Shown here: positions 2,247 to 11,801 of the stretch, piece by piece
Layout: each line of letters starts with the position of its first letter
How positions within the stretch are numbered: the stretch's first letter is position 1
Origin: a virus
Length of the DNA: 11,801 nt
Virus genome (UHGV): UHGV-0074586
Strand: one strand, 5' to 3'
Translations under genes and position numbers: made by a program
Notes under the pieces: model-generated
The model's database searches: none
What the model saw: only the letters and a program-made list of their open reading frames with translations
What the model was told of the DNA's origin: nothing

Positions 2247-3123
2247 GTTAGCTGATTACAGGCATAACCCTGTACAACATCAGGAGGCATCCAGTATGGG
2301 GTATGTCTCTATACACCGCCAGTTTATGGACAGCAGGCTCTATAAGGACTCTCAGGCAGTACATCTTTGGCTTCACTTAATCCTCAAGGCTAATCACGAA
2401 TCTACTGTCGTCAATACGGATATCGGTCCGATAACTGTTGATCGCGGTCAGATGATAACTGGACGCCCGTCGCTGGTCAGAGAAACATTCATCCCCGACA
2501 ACAAAGTTCGGAGCTTATTACGGACTTTTGAGTCGAAAGGGATGCTTAATATTTGCTCGATGGGGAAGAAATTTAGCCTGTTTACAATCGTTAAATATGA
2601 CGATTTTCAGGCAAAAAATTGTCCAACGGTTGTCCAACGGTTGTCCAACGCAAACACCAGTAATGGCGAGGCTCTCAGCGGAGATTGTCCAACGGTTGTC
2701 CAACGGTTGTCCATAAACAATAATATAAATAATATCTCTAATACTGACGTATTAGAGAGTGCCACAGCAGACAAAAAGTCTGACAAGAAAAAACCTTCCG
2801 TTAGCTGTCAGGATGTTGTCGATGCTTACCACGAAATCCTTCCTGAAGCGCCAAGAATCCGCGCACTGAATGACAAGCGTAAAAACCAGATCCGAACGTT
2901 CTGGCGCAAAGCCGGAGTGATAACCCGCCAGCTTGACGGGCATGGGTTCACGATGCAGGACTGGAGAAATTATTTGAGCTACGTAGGCGAAAATTGCCGA
3001 TGGATGTTCGAAGAGCGTCCAAACCATCAACGCGGAACCGTCTGGCACAAAAAGGGATTTGATTTCCTGCTTAACGACAATACCTACCTGAAAGTTCGTG
3101 AGGGTGAACACGATGACCGATAA
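2233..3123 (+). CDS. O-like replication initiation protein (iteron-binding), origin embedded in the gene
   Basis: 296 aa. AGGAG at 2222..2226 precedes ATG 2233. Position after cII, internal iterons and translational coupling to a DnaB-type helicase indicate a lambda O / P22 gp18 analogue. Not sequence-similar to lambda O as far as I can recall. Confidence 0.7.
   Translation: MGVVKLADYRHNPVQHQEASSMGYVSIHRQFMDSRLYKDSQAVHLWLHLILKANHESTVVNTDIGPITVDRGQMITGRPSLVRETFIPDNKVRSLLRTFESKGMLNICSMGKKFSLFTIVKYDDFQAKNCPTVVQRLSNANTSNGEALSGDCPTVVQRLSINNNINNISNTDVLESATADKKSDKKKPSVSCQDVVDAYHEILPEAPRIRALNDKRKNQIRTFWRKAGVITRQLDGHGFTMQDWRNYLSYVGENCRWMFEERPNHQRGTVWHKKGFDFLLNDNTYLKVREGEHDDR
2619..2717. repeat. origin iterons: two clusters of three tandem 11-bp repeats TTGTCCAACGG (2619..2651 and 2685..2717)
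   Basis: Direct repeats with 11-bp periodicity, last copy of each cluster degenerate, clusters separated by about 33 bp, followed by an AT-rich stretch. They fall in the linker of the O-like protein (repeated translation PTVVQRLSN). Confidence 0.8.
2713..2760. promoter_or_regulatory. AT-rich DNA-unwinding-element-like tract flanking the iterons
   Basis: ataaacaataatataaataatatctctaatactgacgtattagagag is almost pure A/T directly 3' of the iterons, the classic lambdoid ori layout. Confidence 0.5.
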
Positions 3124-7441: not shown

Positions 7442-7626
7442 ACGCCACAATTCAAACGATACCAGAGCTTCTTATCCAGACACGAGGCAATCAGACCGAA
7501 GTGGCGAGGATGCTTTCCTGCGCAAGAGGAACAGTGCTCAAGTACAACCGAGACAGCAAAGGCGAGCTTCACGTAATAGTTAACGGCGTCCTGATGGTCA
7601 AACAGGGCAAGAGGGGAAGACGATGA
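7438..7626 (+). CDS. ninH: NinH
   Basis: 62 aa with the ...GNQTEVARMLSCARGTVLKY...VIVNGVLMV core matching lambda NinH. ATGA overlaps on both sides. Confidence 0.8.
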   Translation: MNATIQTIPELLIQTRGNQTEVARMLSCARGTVLKYNRDSKGELHVIVNGVLMVKQGKRGRR

Positions 7627-8111
7627 GCATAAGAGAACTAAACCTCACCAAAGAGCAGCACGAGTGGCTGAATGGCTGGCTTGAACTGTGGGGCGCATGG
7701 GTTTATTCAGGTCGTCTGGAAAAGCGCATGAGCAGCGTAATAGCGAAGTTCATGGAGAGCGTAGAGCCGGGAAGAGTTATGACAAGGCCAATGTGCAATG
7801 ATGATGATGGAATGTTGATTTCTCAGGTCGTCGATTCCGTCATGTACATTGACAAGAAAGCCTTTGGAATCCTCCTCAGCTACTACGCTCATGGCTCTTC
7901 CAAGCACGCCATTGCATCTTACTATCATCGCGTCGCAAGACCTCGCAAGATGTTATGCCGTGGCGGCGGGCGCATTCAAAAACCATCGCTCGCAACCTGT
8001 CGACGGGAAGTTGACGAAATCCTTAATGCCTCGTTGTTTATGATTTACCCGGTTCTGGATAGTGCGTTTAAAAACCGGAAACGTGTAGAGAAAATTAAAC
8101 ATGTAGCATAG
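7623..8111 (+). CDS. Q-like late-gene antiterminator (non-lambda Q type)
   Basis: 162 aa, last gene before the lysis region. WGAW...RPMCNDDDGMLIS...YYAHG motifs resemble the Q proteins of 933W/82-type phages, not lambda Q. Assigned from memory and position. Confidence 0.65.
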   Translation: MSIRELNLTKEQHEWLNGWLELWGAWVYSGRLEKRMSSVIAKFMESVEPGRVMTRPMCNDDDGMLISQVVDSVMYIDKKAFGILLSYYAHGSSKHAIASYYHRVARPRKMLCRGGGRIQKPSLATCRREVDEILNASLFMIYPVLDSAFKNRKRVEKIKHVA

Positions 8112-8117
8112 AACGTG

Positions 8118-8198
8118 TTGACATCATTGAGCAAATGAGCAACACTATTGGCATAAGCTGCCGTTAGTGACTCTTAAGTTGCAACGGTGGCTTTTTTT
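8118..8198 (+). promoter_or_regulatory. candidate late promoter (consensus -35 TTGACA at 8118..8123) followed by a hairpin plus T7 run (8157..8198)
   Basis: Perfect TTGACA 7 nt after the Q stop; no convincing -10. Stem GCTGCCGTT/AACGGTGGC (two G-U pairs, 17-nt loop) is followed by TTTTTTT ending 5 nt before tRNA 1. Confidence 0.3.
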
Positions 8199-8202
8199 AT
8201 TT

Positions 8203-8277
8203 GGGTCAGTCGTATAAAGGTCATTACTGAAGGCTGTTAACCTTCTTATCGTGGTTCGAGTCCACGCTGTCCCGCCA
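8203..8277 (+). tRNA. tRNA-Asn (anticodon GUU), phage-encoded
   Basis: Hand-folded cloverleaf: 7-bp acceptor stem with one T-T mismatch, perfect anticodon stem GAAGG/CCTTC with loop CTGTTAA, perfect T-arm CGTGG-TTCGAGT-CCACG, encoded CCA. The D-stem has only 3 pairs. Confidence 0.6.
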
Positions 8278-8282
8278 AATAT

Positions 8283-8358
8283 GCTGGTTTAGCTCCAATG
8301 GTAGAGCAGTCGCCTTGTAAGCGAATGGGTAGCGGTTCAAGTCCGTTAACCAGCACCA
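8283..8358 (+). tRNA. tRNA-Thr (anticodon UGU), phage-encoded
   Basis: Hand-folded cloverleaf: perfect acceptor stem GCTGGTT/AACCAGC, D-arm GCTC-CAATGGTA-GAGC, anticodon loop CTTGTAA, T-arm AGCGG-TTCAAGT-CCGTT, discriminator A and CCA. Confidence 0.7.
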
Positions 8359-8519
8359 TAACTGAGCCGTAGCCACTGGCTATCCTGAATTCATCAGTGA
8401 TAGTTATGCTGCGGCCTTCTACACATGACCTTCGTGAAAGCGGGTGGTTCAATTCTGCTGCCTTCTTCACGTTAAAAGAGGAATTAGGCTTCGAAAATGC
8501 AAAAACTTGCAAAAATGAC

Positions 8520-8548
8520 TTGAAAACGAGTTTTGAAACTGCATAATT
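8520..8548 (+). promoter_or_regulatory. sigma70-like promoter (TTGAAA, 16-bp spacer, CATAAT) preceded by phased A-tracts
   Basis: -35 at 8520..8525, -10 at 8542..8547 with a TG just upstream. The preceding 40 bp holds repeated TGCAAAAA/TTGAAAAC A-tracts at roughly helical phasing (8492..8526). Confidence 0.35.
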
Positions 8549-8630
8549 CCTATATGCTCGGACGTCAAAGGCGAAAGAGCTTACCCACCAGCGAAGATGC
8601 CTTGTGCGGAGCGGTGGGAAACACATTCAA

Positions 8631-8658
8631 GCCCTTGCAGAAATGCAGGGGCTTTTTT
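8631..8658 (+). terminator. strong rho-independent terminator in the leader upstream of the insertion operon
   Basis: 9-bp stem GCCCTTGCA/TGCAGGGGC (one G-U pair) with GAAA tetraloop, then TTTTTT. It lies 30 nt upstream of the first operon ATG and inside the ORF-track 5' extension that starts at TTG 8533. Confidence 0.7.
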
Positions 8659-8688
8659 ATTGGCTCAGTGCCACCAGGTGAACACCGT

Positions 8689-9240
8689 ATGCACACGGCG
8701 ATCATTTGCGCTTCCGGACCTTCCCTCACCCACGACGACTGCCAGAAAGCCATTGGCGCTGGATTACCCGTTATTGCGGTGAATTCTTCATGGCGCGCGG
8801 TGCCGGGATGCTCTCACATTTACGCGGGTGATCTGCGCTGGTGGGATGTGAACATTCCCGCGCTGCCCGATGGCCCCGAACGCTGGTCATGTAACCGGAG
8901 AGCACACACCCGATACGGCGTGAGCCTCTTCCCGACAGATACCAGCGGCACATTCAATTCGGGGCAGAGAGCAATCCTGTTCGCTCACTGGCTGGGTGCC
9001 AGTAGCATCATCCTGCTGGGCTTCGATTGCTCAATCTCAAACGGTAGTCACTGGCACGGCGATCACACAGTCCTCGATAACCCGACAGCAGCGAACGTAA
9101 AGCGCTGGCATGGCGAGTTTGCCCGGGTTGCGGCGCAGCTGCGTGGAAGCGTCAATATCATCAACAGCAGCCGCCAGACGGCGCTTAATTGCTTTCGTCG
9201 CTTACCTCTTGAAGCTGCGATCAGCGAGGTTACATGCTGA
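8689..9240 (+). CDS. hypothetical protein with Cst/GT42-like (DUF115/MptE-like) CMP-ulosonate transferase-fold signatures
   Basis: 183 aa from ATG 8689 (AGGTGA 7 nt upstream). IICASGPSL...PVIAVNSSW and FNSGQRAILFAHWLGASSIILLGFDCSISNGSHWHGDH parallel the GNGPSL, RCN, TSG...LGY...LSGIDFY and SHYIGH motifs of Campylobacter Cst-type sialyltransferases as I recall them. Fold-level inference only. Confidence 0.45.
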   Translation: MHTAIICASGPSLTHDDCQKAIGAGLPVIAVNSSWRAVPGCSHIYAGDLRWWDVNIPALPDGPERWSCNRRAHTRYGVSLFPTDTSGTFNSGQRAILFAHWLGASSIILLGFDCSISNGSHWHGDHTVLDNPTAANVKRWHGEFARVAAQLRGSVNIINSSRQTALNCFRRLPLEAAISEVTC

Positions 9241-10175
9241 ATCCTCCGATTTACATCGATGGCATGCTGGGAATGGGAGATACCATTTACCAGCGCGCTT
9301 TCGTCAAACAACTGCCTGCTGGGACATTCATTAAGACGGCATGGCCGGAGCTTTACGAAGATCTGCCGGTGAAAGTTGTCCGAAGTGACACCACGCTCAG
9401 AACGCAGCGTAAAAATGAGTTTCGCAGTTCGGCAAAGTTTTATCCGCCGCCATCGCCACGACAGACGAAGCGAATATTTTACGGACCGTATGATCTGCGG
9501 CGCGGTTCGATATTTGATGCGATGCGACGCCAGTTCGGCGTAACGCCAGCAGCGCTTGATTTGCCATCCTTTGGCCCGTCGCAGTTTACGCACCAAAAGC
9601 CGATCGCCGTTATCCGTCCGGCAACGGTTCGTTCTGAATGGCGTAGCGACTCCCGAAACCCTGACCCCGATTACCTCCTGCGCGCATCGAGAATCCTGCG
9701 GAAACATTTCTGCGTGATTAGCGTTGCTGATTTGCAGGACGGGGAAGAGTGGCTGGTGGGCGAAGAACCAGAGGCGGATCTGAAAATGCACGCTGGCGAG
9801 CTCAATATCAAAGAGCTGATGCGCCTGGTTGAGCATGCCGCTGTCGTGGTTACGCCTGTTGGCTGGGCGCTGCCCGCTGCCATTGCGTACAAAACACCTG
9901 TTTACGTTGTCGCTGGTGGGCGCGGTGGGCATAACGCTCCCGAGATAGTCACCGATCCGGCGATGGATTTATCCCGCGTTGGCTGGGCAATCCCGGACAA
10001 TTATTGTCGCTGCGAAGCGTGGGATCACCATTGCGACAAACGCATCTTCAACTTTGATTCAAAATTCGAGACATGGCTGAATGAAGTCGTTTTATCAGGA
10101 ACTGAACAGCGGGCTGGTATTCCTCCCGGAGCTGGGCATCGGTCGTTATCCGGTTCCGGCATCACGCCCGTATGA
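9234..10175 (+). CDS. hypothetical protein with glycosyltransferase family 9 (ADP-heptose:LPS heptosyltransferase)-like fold; 3' boundary uncertain
   Basis: ATG overlaps the upstream stop (ATGCTGA). N-terminal IYIDGMLGMGDTIYQRAFVKQL and C-terminal ELNIKELMRLVEHAAVVVTPVGWALPAAIAYKTPVYVVAGG follow the GT9 pattern, but the canonical DTGPMHLAAA motif is replaced by TPVGWALPAAIA. The ORF runs 95 nt into the next gene. Confidence 0.45.
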   Translation: MLNPPIYIDGMLGMGDTIYQRAFVKQLPAGTFIKTAWPELYEDLPVKVVRSDTTLRTQRKNEFRSSAKFYPPPSPRQTKRIFYGPYDLRRGSIFDAMRRQFGVTPAALDLPSFGPSQFTHQKPIAVIRPATVRSEWRSDSRNPDPDYLLRASRILRKHFCVISVADLQDGEEWLVGEEPEADLKMHAGELNIKELMRLVEHAAVVVTPVGWALPAAIAYKTPVYVVAGGRGGHNAPEIVTDPAMDLSRVGWAIPDNYCRCEAWDHHCDKRIFNFDSKFETWLNEVVLSGTEQRAGIPPGAGHRSLSGSGITPV

Positions 10176-10690
10176 CGAGCAGTATTTCGCGAAGTATCAG
10201 CAGCTTGCCGACACCGAAACGGGCAGAGCCTTAACGCAATCCCGTATTGAGCTGGTGGCGCGCCATTTTCACGGTCCTGTTCTCGACGTTGGTATCGGTG
10301 CCGGTCAGTTCGTCTCTACCCGACCGGGAACGCTTGGGTATGACGTTAATCCGGCTGGTATCGCCTGGCTGAACGAGCGGGGCGCATTCGCTGACCTCTA
10401 GTCAGGGGCGCGCGCTGACGATGTGGGATGTCCTGGAGCACATCGACGAGCCGGAGCTGGCGGTACAGCAGGCTACAGAGTTTGTTTTCGTGTCGATCCC
10501 CATTTTTACCGATGCCGGAGACATTCTTCGCTCGCACCATTTCAGGAAGAACGAGCACATCTGGTATTTCACTGACGACGGTATTAAGCGCTGGTTTGCA
10601 GAGCAGGGCTTCGAATGCGCTGAACAGAACACAATCGAATGCCAGTTAGGGCGTAAGGGCGTCGCTTCGTACGCTTTCCGCCGCGTTTAG
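10081..10690 (+). pseudogene. class I SAM-dependent methyltransferase split by a frameshift near 10395..10402
   Basis: ORF 10081..10401 carries motif I (VLDVGIGAGQF) and an acidic beta-2 end (GYDVNP). ORF 10421..10690 in another frame carries the DVLEH motif. The frame upstream of 10421 reads ...SSQGRALTMWDVLEH, so one indel just before the TAG at 10399..10401 would restore a single protein of about 200 aa. Confidence 0.6.
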
Positions 10691-10764
10691 TCCCCTCTTA
10701 GCCCATTGCATTTGGGTTTATTCCAGTTTCGCACACATCACCCGCAAACAGGCGAGGTCAACCT

Positions 10765-10923
10765 ATGAATAGCTCTCACGGGATTTTTGAACAAACCATG
10801 AAATGGATCGCGCTATATCTGCCGTCAGTTTACGCCGGGTTATGCGCTCTGGGCATCTCAGCGCTTATCGACATACGCGCAGGGAAGCCGAAACTCTACA
10901 CCGCCACTGGCGCGCTAAATTAA
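10765..10923 (+). CDS. 52-aa small membrane protein immediately upstream of the holin gene
   Basis: GAGGT at 10754..10758 is 6 nt upstream of ATG 10765. Product MNSSHGIFEQTMKWIALYLPSVYAGLCALGISALIDIRAGKPKLYTATGALN has one predicted TM helix. Its stop coincides with the point where lambda-like sequence resumes. Confidence 0.45.
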   Translation: MNSSHGIFEQTMKWIALYLPSVYAGLCALGISALIDIRAGKPKLYTATGALN

Positions 10924-10954
10924 ATAGAGCAAATCCCCTTATTGTGGGTAAGAC

Positions 10955-11278
10955 ATGAAGATGCCAGAAAAACATGACCTGTTAGCCGCCATTCTCGCGG
11001 CAAAGGAACAAGGCATCGGGGCAATCCTTGCGTTTGCAATGGCGTACCTTCGCGGCAGATATAATGGCGGTGCGTTTACAAAAACAGTAATCGACGCAAC
11101 GATGTGCGCCATTATCGCCTGGTTCATTCGTGACCTTCTCGACTTCGCCGGACTAAGTAGCAATCTCGCTTATATAACGAGCGTGTTCATCGGCTACATC
11201 GGTACTGACTCGATTGGTTCGCTTATCAAACGCTTCGCTGCTAAAAAAGCCGGAGTAGAAGATGGTGGAAATCAATAA
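10955..11278 (+). CDS. S: holin S (S107/S105 dual-start class I holin)
   Basis: 107 aa, essentially lambda S as I recall it. Met1-Lys2-Met3 dual-start motif at 10955..10963 and a CCCC...GGG stem upstream. Confidence 0.95.
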
Positions 11279-11738
11279 TCAACGTAAGGCGTTCCTCGAT
11301 ATGCTGGCGTGGTCAGAGGGAACTGATAACGGACGACAGAAAACCAGAAATCATGGTTATGACGTCATTGTAGGCGGAGAGCTATTCACTGATTACTCTG
11401 ATCACCCTCGCAAACTTGTCACGCTAAATCCGAAACTCAAATCAACAGCCGCCGGACGCTACCAGCTTCTTTCCCGTTGGTGGGATGCCTACCGCAAGCA
11501 GCTTGGCCTGAAAGACTTCTCTCCGAAAAGCCAGGACGCTGTGGCATTGCAACAGATTAAAGAGCGTGGCGCTTTACCGATGATTGACCGCGGTGATATT
11601 CGTCAGGCAATCGACCGTTGCAGCAATATCTGGGCTTCACTGCCGGGCGCTGGTTATGGCCAGTTCGAGCATAAGGCTGACAGCCTGATTGCAAAATTCA
11701 AAGAGGCTGGCGGAACGGTCAGAGAGATTGAGGTATGA
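11262..11738 (+). CDS. R: endolysin R (lytic transglycosylase)
   Basis: 158 aa, essentially lambda R as I recall it ([39 protein letters not shown]...). Start overlaps the end of S as in lambda. Confidence 0.95.
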
Positions 11739-11801
11739 GCAGAGTCACCGCGATTATCTCCGCTCTGGTTATCTGCATCATCGTCTGCCTGTCATGGGCT
11801 G
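11735..11801 (+). CDS. Rz: spanin Rz, 5' partial (runs off the right edge)
   Basis: ATGA overlap with the R stop. N-terminus [22 protein letters not shown] matches the lambda Rz signal-anchor. Confidence 0.85.
   Translation, partial: MSRVTAIISALVICIIVCLSWA

Follow-up and report, generated by a model that had tools for sequence, protein, structure and literature searches.

A lambdoid late-operon leader probably interrupted by a late-region slice of a Chi-rich phage

In the window studied here (the whole 11,801-nucleotide stretch of the virus genome UHGV-0074586), we propose, with a probability of about 85%, that positions 8360..8447 are the beginning of a lambdoid late-operon leader broken by a non-homologous joint with a 2.47-kb slice of the late region of a Chi-rich lambdoid phage, a second joint leading back to the leader of S. 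The left joint, at the foot of the second hairpin of the leader, would have fused this leader to the late region of another lambdoid phage. The slice would have brought in, from left to right, the 3' end of a Q-like gene, a late promoter with the leader and terminator that belong to it, the three cargo genes and, last, the first third of a holin gene. The second joint, at 10917/10918, would then have returned to the lambda S leader, with 116 bp of leader lost overall. The sequence features listed in an earlier note on this DNA are all present, three sets of coordinates being one base off.

The leader segment between the tRNA genes and the lysis genes

The window reads Q21, pR', tR', two tRNAs, leader segment, insert, S and R. 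Its features up to the end of the leader segment are as follows.

7623..8111, plus strand: Q antiterminator gene of the phage-21 type (Pfam PF06530, E 8.8e-25; phrog_943, E 3.2e-90)
8118..8202, plus strand: phage-21-type late promoter region pR' (homology to phage 21)
8118..8123, plus strand: -35 element of pR' (phage 21 homology)
8126..8141, plus strand: Q-binding elements ATTGAGCA/AATGAGCA (phage 21 homology)
About 8153, plus strand: start site of pR' (phage 21 homology)
8155..8202, plus strand: terminator tR' (phage 21 homology)
8203..8277, plus strand: tRNA-Asn (GTT) (ARAGORN; Rfam RF00005, 53.4 bits)
8283..8358, plus strand: tRNA-Thr (TGT) (ARAGORN; Rfam RF00005, 61.5 bits)
8360..8447, plus strand: untranslated lambda-type late-operon leader segment (blastn and alignment to lambda; annotation of phage CUS-3)

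The leader segment directly adjoins the phage-21-type Q/pR'/tR'/tRNA-Asn/tRNA-Thr block. Phage 21 is 97.8% identical to the window over 7608..8420; the coordinates of pR' were transferred from its annotated record OL657228 by ungapped offset and the sequence itself was read directly. Q21 drives the late operon that includes the leader segment.

We found that 8360..8447 corresponds to lambda 44945..45032, with 82 of 88 positions identical (93.2%, blastn E 1.45e-32), and that the GAATTC site at 8387..8392 aligns with the lambda EcoRI site at 44972. This match lies far beyond chance. The earlier note had recognised a lambda-like segment upstream of S at 8359..8446, and such a segment is indeed there, one base further on. 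The alignment it had called for shows similarity that breaks at 8447/8448 and resumes at 10918 (lambda 45149) through S and R, and the point of divergence coincides with the left recombination joint of the insertion in alignments to lambda, to the empty-site prophage L003 and to the donors. The 37 nt of leader next to S are kept (10918..10954, lambda 45149..45185), while the middle 116 bp of the lambda-type leader are missing; downstream, 10918..11801 is 97.5% identical to lambda 45149..46032.

To call the segment a lambda remnant is correct as far as the likeness goes, but the 88 nt are also the opening of a 241-bp stretch present in other phages, which is annotated before S in phage CUS-3 as the bsq3 boundary sequence. 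The CUS-3 feature (CP000711) begins at the same base as the window segment and is 100% identical to it over 86 nt. More than 120 IMG/VR contigs carry the segment, and what precedes it is of five kinds: tRNA-Thr, a lambda-type context and three T-arm-like relics. The lambda-type sequence runs on past 8447 in 123 of 125 contigs, so phages do not commonly change module at this point. Phage 21 and the Klebsiella phages part from the window just past the first hairpin, at about 8420. With 8380..8520 as the query, the lambda-type left half was matched in 613 of 5426 E. coli genomes and, among the matches listed, the left-half alignments stop at query position 68, that is 8447. From this homology, 8360..8447 is identified as the start of a late-operon leader common to lambda, phage 21, Sf6/P22-like phages and many enterobacterial lambdoid phages.

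The concept of boundary sequences in lambdoid mosaics reportedly stems from the work of Clark et al. in 2001 on HK620. It is also cited in PMC3029335. Our segment agrees with this concept by its homology, by its position between a Q/pR'/tR' block and a holin gene on the late-transcribed strand, and by the different modules that adjoin it, all of which are read from sequence comparison. Like the leaders of CUS-3 and lambda, it is placed between the Q/pR'/tR' block and a lambda-type S holin gene, and like bsq3 it stands behind several upstream modules. The likeness to CUS-3 bsq3 and lambda 44945..45185 covers the first 88 nt and the last 37 nt, whereas the middle 116 bp, with the second hairpin, are swapped in the window for 2.47 kb of foreign late-region DNA.

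The recombination joints and the imported slice

The left joint was mapped by aligning the window with the recipient arrangement (lambda, L003) and with the donor arrangement (prophages L005 and L006). From this joint onwards, the window contains the following features.

8447..8448: left recombination joint, recipient ...GCGGGTGG / donor TTCAATTC... (three-way alignments)
8448..8546, plus strand: truncated Q-like antiterminator gene, last 32 codons and stop, in frame with the C-termini of the L006 and L005 proteins
8520..8547, plus strand: second sigma-70 promoter-like site, TTGAAA, 16-nt spacer, CATAAT, 10/12 matches (consensus scan)
8554..8661, plus strand: predicted leader RNA of about 105 nt with an intrinsic terminator (terminator scan; fold -43.9 kcal/mol, z -3.0)
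8689..9240, plus strand: cargo gene, MptE-like, phrog_4603 (Pfam, PHROG)
9234..10175, plus strand: cargo gene, phrog_6804 (PHROG)
10081..10690, plus strand: cargo gene, SAM methyltransferase, broken (Pfam, PHROG)
10765..10917, plus strand: truncated donor holin gene of the lambda family, first ~50 codons (identity to the L004 and L005 holins)
10917..10918: right recombination joint, donor ...GGCGCGCTAA / recipient ATTAAATAG..., lambda 45149 on (alignments)
10918..10954, plus strand: lambda-type S leader (lambda alignment)
10955..11278, plus strand: holin S (lambda annotation)
11262..11738, plus strand: endolysin R (lambda annotation)

The left joint reads GCGGGTGG then TTCAATTCTGCTG..., with a single shared base, G8447. 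The right joint also has one shared base, and all recipient-type loci compared there (119/119) read TTCCTAA followed by TTAAATAG. Between the two, 8448..10917 (2470 bp) stands where 116 bp of lambda-type leader was. Indeed, the empty-site prophage L003 matches the window at 98.5% identity as far as 8447 and at 98% from 10918 on, and has the 116-bp lambda-type stretch between these two points. Each side of a joint matches a different parental arrangement that is intact elsewhere, the recipient in L003 and lambda, the donor in L005 and L006, and the joints cut the Q-like gene, the holin gene and the second leader hairpin, HP2. As read from these alignments, both joints are products of illegitimate (non-homologous) recombination with 1 nt of microhomology each, of the ordinary kind for lambdoid mosaics.

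Site-specific or transpositional insertion was considered and rejected. In a repeat search over 8340..10990, no direct or inverted repeat paired the left with the right end of the insert, which leaves the flanking repeats anticipated by the earlier note without a counterpart; and no integrase or transposase was matched among the ORFs of the insert in Pfam, PHROG or NCBIfam.

It is extremely improbable that the joint is an assembly chimera and not a real phage arrangement. In favour of a chimera, the exact joint is in no GTDB representative genome, complete E. coli genome, plasmid or GenBank phage record, and its matches were confined to a single contig of IMG/VR and a single metagenome contig of ENA. 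Against this, both joints recur in the independently assembled IMG/VR contig 3300029005_000004 (40.9 kb), which differs from the window in the tRNA region, at base 8461 and at a 5-bp deletion in the methyltransferase gene, and the left joint is found again in the ENA contig OAZW01000448.1. In this sister IMG/VR contig the promoter and the Q-binding region differ from those of the window, and a T-arm relic replaces the tRNAs. L004 shows a left joint of separate origin, which falls on the -35 of the imported promoter and follows a lambda-type Q. No intermediate between the two recombination events was found.

The content of the insert points to a donor late region. The Q-like fragment matches the C-terminus of the 227-aa L006 protein at 31 of 32 residues and that of L005 at 28 of 32; the full-length protein belongs to phrog_753 'anti-termination protein Q-like' (E 9.5e-57) and is 42-44% identical to the annotated Q of ST64B and of a Serratia phage. 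At the other end, the translated holin fragment agrees without a difference with residues 1-51 of the L004 and L005 holins (110 aa; Pfam PF05106, E 5.5e-16). In L005 and L006 the donor layout is intact: Q-like gene, promoter, terminator, three genes, holin and GH19 endolysin. This Q-like gene with its promoter and terminator is found again in the Citrobacter phage Omnitron, immediately before the lysis genes. The methyltransferase gene is broken by the 5-bp deletion at about 10399 (compared with L004 and L130), and the cargo genes had no match in PADLOC, NCBIfam or PDB sequences.

In L005, L006 and Omnitron, the promoter-like site is found where the Q-like gene ends, and lysis genes follow. 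Across the donors, 8520..8547 is 94-100% identical, and the leader 8554..8661 is 96-98% identical, whereas their cargo genes are only ~75% identical. Between the hexamers of the imported promoter there is a direct repeat, TTGAAAAC / TTTGAAAC, and a -10-like TATAT is found at the predicted start of its RNA. The terminator has a stem at 8629..8654, with 11 pairs followed by TTTTTTAT (T-tract). No Rfam family was found for 8554..8661. The stretch 8520..8661 has the layout of a Q-dependent late promoter, with a putative sigma-70 site, the 3' end of a Q gene, a predicted terminator and late genes; these promoter and terminator assignments are drawn from consensus matches and position. We infer that 8520..8547 is the late promoter of the donor itself, whose cognate Q is now lost.

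Base composition is consistent with such an origin, the GC content being 54.8% in the insert and 46.5% in the left flank. All five Chi octamers of the window are in the insert (0.08 expected; four were reached by 0/2000 shuffles). Many Chi sites are also found in the donor-type prophages L005, L006 and L009, and none in the lambda, phage 21 and L003 stretches. Chi-rich lambdoid phages are a known class (PMC12315714) which the insert matches, with the difference that here only a 2.47-kb piece of this kind lies inside an otherwise Chi-free window.

Three sequence resemblances around the left joint have other explanations. The earlier note had described a 13-bp motif and its recurrence; both copies are present, TGCTGCGGCCTTCT at 8407..8420 and CTGCTGCCTTCTTC at 8455..8468 (one base before the position first given), but their resemblance elsewhere is at chance level. 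That the insertion recombined at these copies, as a microhomology or a recognition repeat, is very unlikely. Their best self-alignment, 14/16, was reached by only 5/1000 dinucleotide shuffles of this window, and the similarity to phage 21 happens to stop at 8420, just past copy 1, two points that would suit such a role. However, the sister contig and the donors aligned at this place (L005, L006) have a T at base 8461, and the match is then 13/16, reached by 322/1000 shuffles: in the window the resemblance rests in part on a private substitution, and with T at 8461 it is at chance level. Copy 1 (TGCTGCGGCC) is the 3' arm of the first leader hairpin, HP1, and copy 2 is coding sequence of the Q-like gene (Ser-Ala-Val/Ala-Phe-Phe). 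The joint 8447/8448 lies outside both, 27 nt after the end of copy 1 and 8 nt before the start of copy 2 in donor DNA; since recombination inside a repeat leaves a single copy at the joint, this counts against the motif as a marker of the junction. The right joint has neither a copy of the motif nor another repeat.

The T-arm-like decamer GGTTCAATTC does exist, at 8446..8455. It straddles the joint: its GG is recipient sequence and its TTCAATTC belongs to the codons Phe-Asn-Ser of the donor. Its T-loop-like appearance, its place just past two tRNA genes and the T-arm-like relics that precede the 88-nt segment in some other phages could suggest a relic of a third tRNA or a tRNA-targeted integration site. 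This is hardly credible, given that the loop has no flanking complementary stem, that the joint splits the decamer, and that its last 8 nt, TTCAAYTC, are conserved in Q-like genes. In 8359..8470, ARAGORN detected no tRNA or T-arm and Rfam gave none even at E up to 10; over 8050..8750, Rfam returned the two tRNAs only, the rest being at E >0.1 and far under gathering thresholds. Among the relics elsewhere, that of L020 is a 17-nt T-arm match only (E 0.045), and no match supports a tRNA ancestry of the leader of lambda itself.

The 6-bp stem CGTGAA/TTCACG is likewise real, with arms at 8433..8438 and 8466..8471. Together with neighbouring pairs it folds at -15.4 kcal/mol (z -2.6, matched by 3/200 shuffles). 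Its arms come separately from recipient and donor, the TTCACG arm being coding sequence of the truncated Q-like gene; it is thus a by-product of the joint and, on the alignments, an accidental chimera.

Hairpins of the late leader

Two inherited hairpins, one whole and one halved, belong to the leader segment.

8366..8415, plus strand: HP1, a 20-bp imperfect hairpin (RNA fold -27.7 kcal/mol, z -5.2)
8426..8447, plus strand: 5' half of HP2, the orphaned second leader hairpin (fold of the empty-site prophage L003)

In L003, the equivalent of 8426..8447 and the next ~50 nt fold at -38.1 kcal/mol (z -5.8), and the lambda version of HP2 at -30.2 kcal/mol. The left joint cuts HP2 2 nt into its inner stem, and the partner strand is within the 116 bp lost to the insertion. 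The two hairpins that had been called nested are not nested together, one being the inherited HP1 and the other the chimeric stem. The 9-bp bulged hairpin at 8380..8403 (CTATC-CTGA/TCAG-T-GATAG) is present but is merely the tip of HP1.

HP1 consists of 8 bp, an internal loop, 12 bp with a one-base bulge and a 5-nt apical loop that overlaps the EcoRI site. Its stability was reached by 0/200 shuffles. It is found in lambda, phage 21, Sf6/P22-like phages and a Klebsiella phage lineage, a few bases past the last tRNA or tRNA relic of the late leader. HP1 would most probably work as RNA, on the plus (late) strand; its G-U pairs would turn into C-A mismatches on the other strand. With 20 pairs, one internal loop and one bulge, it fits the size of RNase III substrates (~20 bp, about two helical turns). 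Our best guess, a tentative one, is that HP1 sets the tRNA block apart from the lysis mRNA as a boundary for RNA processing or stability. In broader terms, and with the same reserve, HP1 may be a conserved, so far undescribed cis-acting RNA element, either an RNase III/RNase E processing-stability boundary or a back-up terminator. If true, this element would keep tRNA expression apart from lysis-gene expression.

Our second guess, a weak back-up terminator, is rather unlikely. HP1 would then be a back-up intrinsic terminator or pause hairpin that blocks read-through of tR' into the lysis genes of the prophage and is ignored by Q-modified polymerase. Behind its GC-rich basal stem comes a conserved tail of pyrimidines, CCTTCT (T58, T59 and T61 invariant); in phage 21, the copy ends in U7 and the tail CUUCUUUUUUU has the canonical terminator shape; and in the lambda-type leader the next element downstream is a second terminator-like hairpin followed by GUUUUGCC. 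Tandem termination sites in the lambda late leader were reportedly described by Luk and Szybalski in 1983. On the other hand, the tail in the window and in most variants is CUUCUACA, with 3 U in 8, HP1 was not called by the terminator scan, and a 20-bp stem with an internal loop is atypical of intrinsic terminators. The combination of a GC-rich hairpin and a U-tract is thus not seen in the HP1 of the window, where no proper U-tract follows the stem.

It is somewhat unlikely that the 88 nt, HP1 included, are neutral leader DNA without a function of their own, similar between phages through recent descent and frequent homologous exchange among lambdoid phages. Among phages the segment is 93-100% identical, no more than the S and R genes beside it (97.5%), and the lambda copy of HP1 is degraded, with two mismatches and a fold of -17.2 kcal/mol. 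Covariation in the lambda/P22-like set equals that of shuffled controls, which is uninformative within this set because column identity is 97%, and stem transitions retaining pairing (10/13 against 57% expected) are not significant. Yet HP1 stems vary less than unpaired columns (17/40 against 18/26 columns, p 0.045), and in three lineages HP1 folds with z of -5.2, -5.0 and -4.1. A 'distant' blastn search returned almost nothing below 93% identity except one Klebsiella phage. HP1 is a conservation island in the Klebsiella phages: the helix is kept with one compensatory C-G to U-A change, while the loops and both flanks differ. By our count, this Klebsiella support would represent about two evolutionary events. 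Being just 3' of the tRNA block and present even in lambda, HP1 could interest phage biologists.

Present-day working and relation to known systems

In the present arrangement, we infer that Q21-modified polymerase starting from pR' (8118..8153) would pass tR', the tRNAs, HP1 and the imported terminator, and that by this read-through the cargo and lysis genes would therefore be expressed late in infection. The imported promoter, being without its Q, would by itself yield only the terminated RNA of ~105 nt. At the DNA level, the 88 nt may serve as shared homology, and attached cargo could thus move between phages with different upstream modules.

The concept of moron-like cargo genes that lie between Q/pR' and the lysis genes of lambdoid prophages is said to come from Juhala et al. 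in 2000 and from the Stx-phage literature. In Stx phages, stx is found downstream of pR' and of tRNA genes. As with cargo of the Stx type, the genes of the insert would be non-essential late-leader genes reached by Q-dependent read-through, 3' of phage tRNAs and with a base composition of their own. They differ from moron-like cargo in being a late-region slice of another phage, with a Q-like gene cut short at one end and a holin gene cut short at the other, and in that one of them is broken; and, unlike in a moron cassette of promoter, gene and terminator, the promoter and terminator unit lies upstream of the genes.

The behaviour of PR' in lambdoid prophages has been described, as have the short PR' transcripts 6S RNA of lambda and StxS of Stx phages (PMC7547250). 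The unit 8520..8661 resembles them by its predicted layout, in which a strong sigma-70 promoter placed where a Q-type gene ends precedes a structured leader of ~100 nt with an intrinsic terminator. It differs in having no sequence or Rfam similarity to them and in that its cognate Q is reduced to 33 codons. A weaker possibility, by analogy with StxS, is that the orphaned unit makes a constitutive regulatory RNA of ~105 nt in lysogens.

For annotation, the ORFs 8397..8546 and 10765..10923 are gene fragments, not genes, and the leader would hold a second, orphaned late-promoter unit. Neither the T-arm look-alike nor the repeated motif deserves an entry, and the donor lineage can be recognised by its Chi density and GC content. 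Altogether, the window offers a clean, base-resolved case of lambdoid phages gaining late-operon cargo, in a block that would then have spread to a second phage background via the conserved flanking leader.

The late region and its two recombination joints

The sequence in the window belongs to a lambdoid prophage and covers its late regulatory and lysis region, with the features listed below.

Features of the late region and of the insert (window coordinates unless stated)
7623..8111: phage-21-type gene for the late antiterminator Q (Pfam PF06530, phrog_943)
3' of the Q gene: phage 21 late promoter pR', Q-binding elements and terminator tR', with coordinates transferred from the annotated phage 21 record
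8203..8277: tRNA-Asn
8283..8358: tRNA-Thr
8520..8547: strong sigma-70-like promoter (TTGAAA, 16-nt spacer, CATAAT; 10/12 matches), overlapping the end of the Q-like gene
8629..8654: intrinsic terminator (11 bp and T-tract), about 105 nt beyond the promoter
8585 (-); 8837, 9752, 9912, 10251 (+): Chi octamers
Within 8689..10175: MptE-like protein, 183 aa, intact (phrog_4603, annotated 'alpha-2,3-sialyltransferase')
Within 8689..10175: 313-aa protein, intact (phrog_6804, which assigns no role)
10081..10690: SAM methyltransferase gene, broken at about 10399
10765..10923: 52-codon ORF, about 50 donor holin codons, to which the lambda S leader adds two codons and a stop
From 10955: lambda-type S (holin) and R (endolysin)
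Lambda 45025..45075 and positions 2340..2390 of the empty-site prophage: HP2, the leader's second hairpin, removed from the window

By blastn against lambda, 44945..45032 corresponds to window 8360..8447 (82/88 identical, E 1.45e-32) and 45149..46032 to window 10918..11801 (97.5% identity), while the GAATTC at 8387..8392 maps to lambda 44972, the right-most EcoRI site of lambda. The earlier note had thus correctly identified this sequence as that upstream of S; the motifs that it quoted all exist, although three sets of coordinates are off by one base. The alignment to lambda that it proposed as a check maps the junctions between 8447 and 8448 and between 10917 and 10918.

An 'empty-site' prophage of E. 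coli UPEC_U013 matches the window with 98.5% identity as far as 8447 and with 98% from 10918 onward, and carries between these points the same 116 bp as lambda 45033..45148. Therefore, window 8448..10917 (2470 bp, plus or minus one shared base per end) replaces 116 bp of leader. At the left joint (marked by a slash), recipient GCGGGTGG/CAnGAGG and donor GAGTTG/TTCAAYTC gave GCGGGTGG/TTCAATTC; at the right joint, donor GCGCTAA/T... and recipient TTCCTA/ATTAAATAG gave GCGCTAA/ATTAAATAG, with one base common to both parents at each. What each piece is and where the two joints lie are both established. The insert arose by illegitimate recombination. Transposition and site-specific integration were rejected, because a repeat search across the insert and its flanks found no direct or inverted repeats bracketing it, and Pfam, PHROG and NCBIfam searches found no recombinase encoded in it.

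The joint was absent from 5426 complete E. coli genomes, plasmids, GenBank phages and GTDB representative genomes. Both joints were found in IMG/VR contig 3300029005_000004, and the left one also in ENA contig OAZW01000448.1. Identity between the IMG/VR contig and the window is 98-99.6% across the insert. The contig differs in its promoter and Q-binding region, in having a T-arm-like relic where the window has the two tRNAs, and in its unbroken methyltransferase gene. The recurrence of the joints in this differing background means that the joint is genuine; it arose a single time, and exchange between homologous flanks then took it to a second background. The same cargo was captured separately in the prophage of E. 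coli strain I3 (positions 2490..2530 of that sequence), where it lies behind a lambda-type Q/pR'/tR' and its left joint falls inside the -35 of the imported promoter, whose spacer is down to 15 nt. The cargo has thus entered late leaders more than once.

The left joint is an ordinary phage mosaic joint within an already annotated boundary sequence: in the CUS-3 record, the 241 bp before S are annotated 'bsq3; boundary sequence', with a first base equivalent to window 8360. Among 125 contigs that have the last 21 nt of the 88-nt segment 8360..8447 in common, this segment follows five upstream contexts, namely tRNA-Thr, lambda-type sequence and three T-arm-like relics. These relics precede it in phages devoid of the tRNA-Asn/Thr pair, for example as GCCGGTTCGATTCCGGC-CGCCACAACCCA (L020 3100..3140; other variants occur), and in lambda (44925..44944) it is preceded by ...CAGCACAACCCA. 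Modules do not habitually end at 8447, since 123 of the 125 contigs run on past it in lambda-type sequence. With a junction-spanning query (8380..8520), the lambda-type left half was matched by 613 E. coli genomes, and the listed matches stop at query position 68, that is 8447. These preceding sequences suggest that the leader may derive from a tRNA gene trailer, the gene itself having decayed in several lineages, among them lambda; a single 17-nt T-arm match (E 0.045) supports this.

Donor origin of the insert

The sequence from 8448 onward matches the 3' end of a 227-aa gene in two donor-type E. coli prophages. Its product belongs to phrog_753 'anti-termination protein Q-like' (E 9.5e-57) and shares 42-44% identity with proteins annotated as Q in ST64B and in a Serratia phage. 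What the window retains of the gene, 8448..8546, comprises the 32 C-terminal codons and the stop, and 31/32 of these residues are the same in one of the donors (L006). The leader of about 105 nt between the following promoter and terminator is structured, and the unit 8520..8661 has no Rfam family. We infer that this unit is the donor's own late promoter/terminator unit, now orphaned in the window, because Citrobacter phage Omnitron has the same Q-like gene, promoter and terminator directly before its lysis genes. Among donors, the unit is 94-100% identical whereas their cargo genes are only about 75% identical.

The foreign signature extends to composition: GC is 54.8% in the insert versus 46.5% in the left flank, and the 11.8-kb window has five Chi octamers (GCTGGTGG), every one of them within the 2.47-kb insert, where 0.08 are expected and none of 2000 shuffles reaches four. 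The + strand carries 4/5 of them, and Chi in this orientation is active on RecBCD that enters at the right-hand cos end. The donors, rich in Chi throughout, retain most of the sites, and no Chi octamer occurs in the lambda, phage 21 and empty-site prophage stretches, in agreement with the known split of lambdoid phages into Chi-rich and Chi-free (PMC12315714).

Regarding the cargo, the 313-aa protein has no match in Pfam, NCBIfam, PADLOC or PDB sequence searches. The methyltransferase gene has a 5-bp deletion compared to the strain I3 prophage and the sister IMG/VR contig, leaving ORFs 10081..10401 and 10421..10690; this is either a pseudogene private to the window or a sequencing error. The insert ends within the donor's gene for a lambda-family holin, which the right joint truncates after ~50 codons, and the resulting ORF 10765..10923 sits just upstream of the intact S gene.

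Hairpins and repeats at the left joint

The 9-bp bulged hairpin described from sequence inspection is present, but it is merely the tip of a larger hairpin, HP1 (8366..8415), in which 8 bp and an internal loop lead to 12 bp with a single bulge, closed by a loop of 5 nt (-27.7 kcal/mol, z -5.2). Columns are 97% identical in the lambda/P22-like set, where covariation does not rise above that of shuffled controls; variation is less frequent in stem columns (17/40) than in unpaired ones (18/26, p 0.045). A Klebsiella phage lineage keeps the helix while the internal loop, apical loop and both flanks differ, with one C-G pair changed to U-A and a U-G to C-G. Once this lineage is added, pairing holds in 97% of cells and none of 500 shuffles attains the covariation score, which reflects only about two evolutionary events. 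Several G-U pairs are invariant, which points to an RNA structure on the late-transcribed strand. The lambda copy is weaker (-17.2 kcal/mol) and that of phage 21 is followed by U7. Similarity to the window ends at about the same point (8420/8421) in phage 21 (L002 2821) and Klebsiella phages (L132 about 464), agreeing within a base or two, just after HP1 and its CCTTCT tail, and a different sequence follows in each; the hairpin unit thus acts by itself as a mosaic boundary.

HP2 is stronger than HP1 (-38.1 kcal/mol, z -5.8) in the empty-site phage, where the stretch 8426..8447 supplies its 5' half; the left joint falls 2 nt into its inner stem. Across phages, HP2 comprises an outer stem that encloses a GC-rich stem of 10-12 bp followed by GUUUUGCC (-30 to -38 kcal/mol); its third stem pair is G-C, U-A or one of several mismatched combinations. 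It looks terminator-like, and carries no annotation in the lambda NC_001416, CUS-3 and Sf6 records.

While the observation in the earlier note was good, the mechanism that it drew from the repeats and the 'T-arm' fails. The 6-bp stem that it reported exists as part of a chimeric fold spanning the joint (-15.4 kcal/mol, z -2.6), and so cannot predate the recombination. The enclosed 'T-arm-like' GGTTCAATTC is recipient GG plus donor codons Phe-Asn-Ser. As for the repeated 13-bp motif proposed to mark the junction, copy 1 (TGCTGCGGCC) is the 3' arm of HP1, and copy 2 and TTCACG are donor codons of the Q-like gene. The 14/16 match is unusual in the window (equalled by 5/1000 shuffles); the sister contig, like the donors aligned across the site, has T at 8461, and with this T the match is equalled by 322/1000 shuffles. 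With the joint inside neither copy and the likeness at chance level, the motif was discarded as a recombination mark.

Possible expression of the captured module

Polymerase modified by the phage-21-type Q would start from pR' and read through tR', the tRNAs, HP1 and the imported terminator, so that the cargo would be expressed, then S and R. ORF 10765..10923 could be translated during this late expression. HP1 might, tentatively, separate the tRNA block from the lysis mRNA as a boundary for RNA processing or stability; that it does nothing beyond acting as shared homology is rather doubtful, and a weak back-up terminator is unlikely. The imported promoter, which has lost its own Q and lacks Q21 binding elements, would for this reason yield only a short terminated RNA, comparable to lambda 6S RNA or StxS (PMC7547250). 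The orphaned unit could make such a short RNA constitutively in lysogens. Altogether, the MptE-like, phrog_6804 and methyltransferase genes suggest a glycan or other modification module in the late operon.
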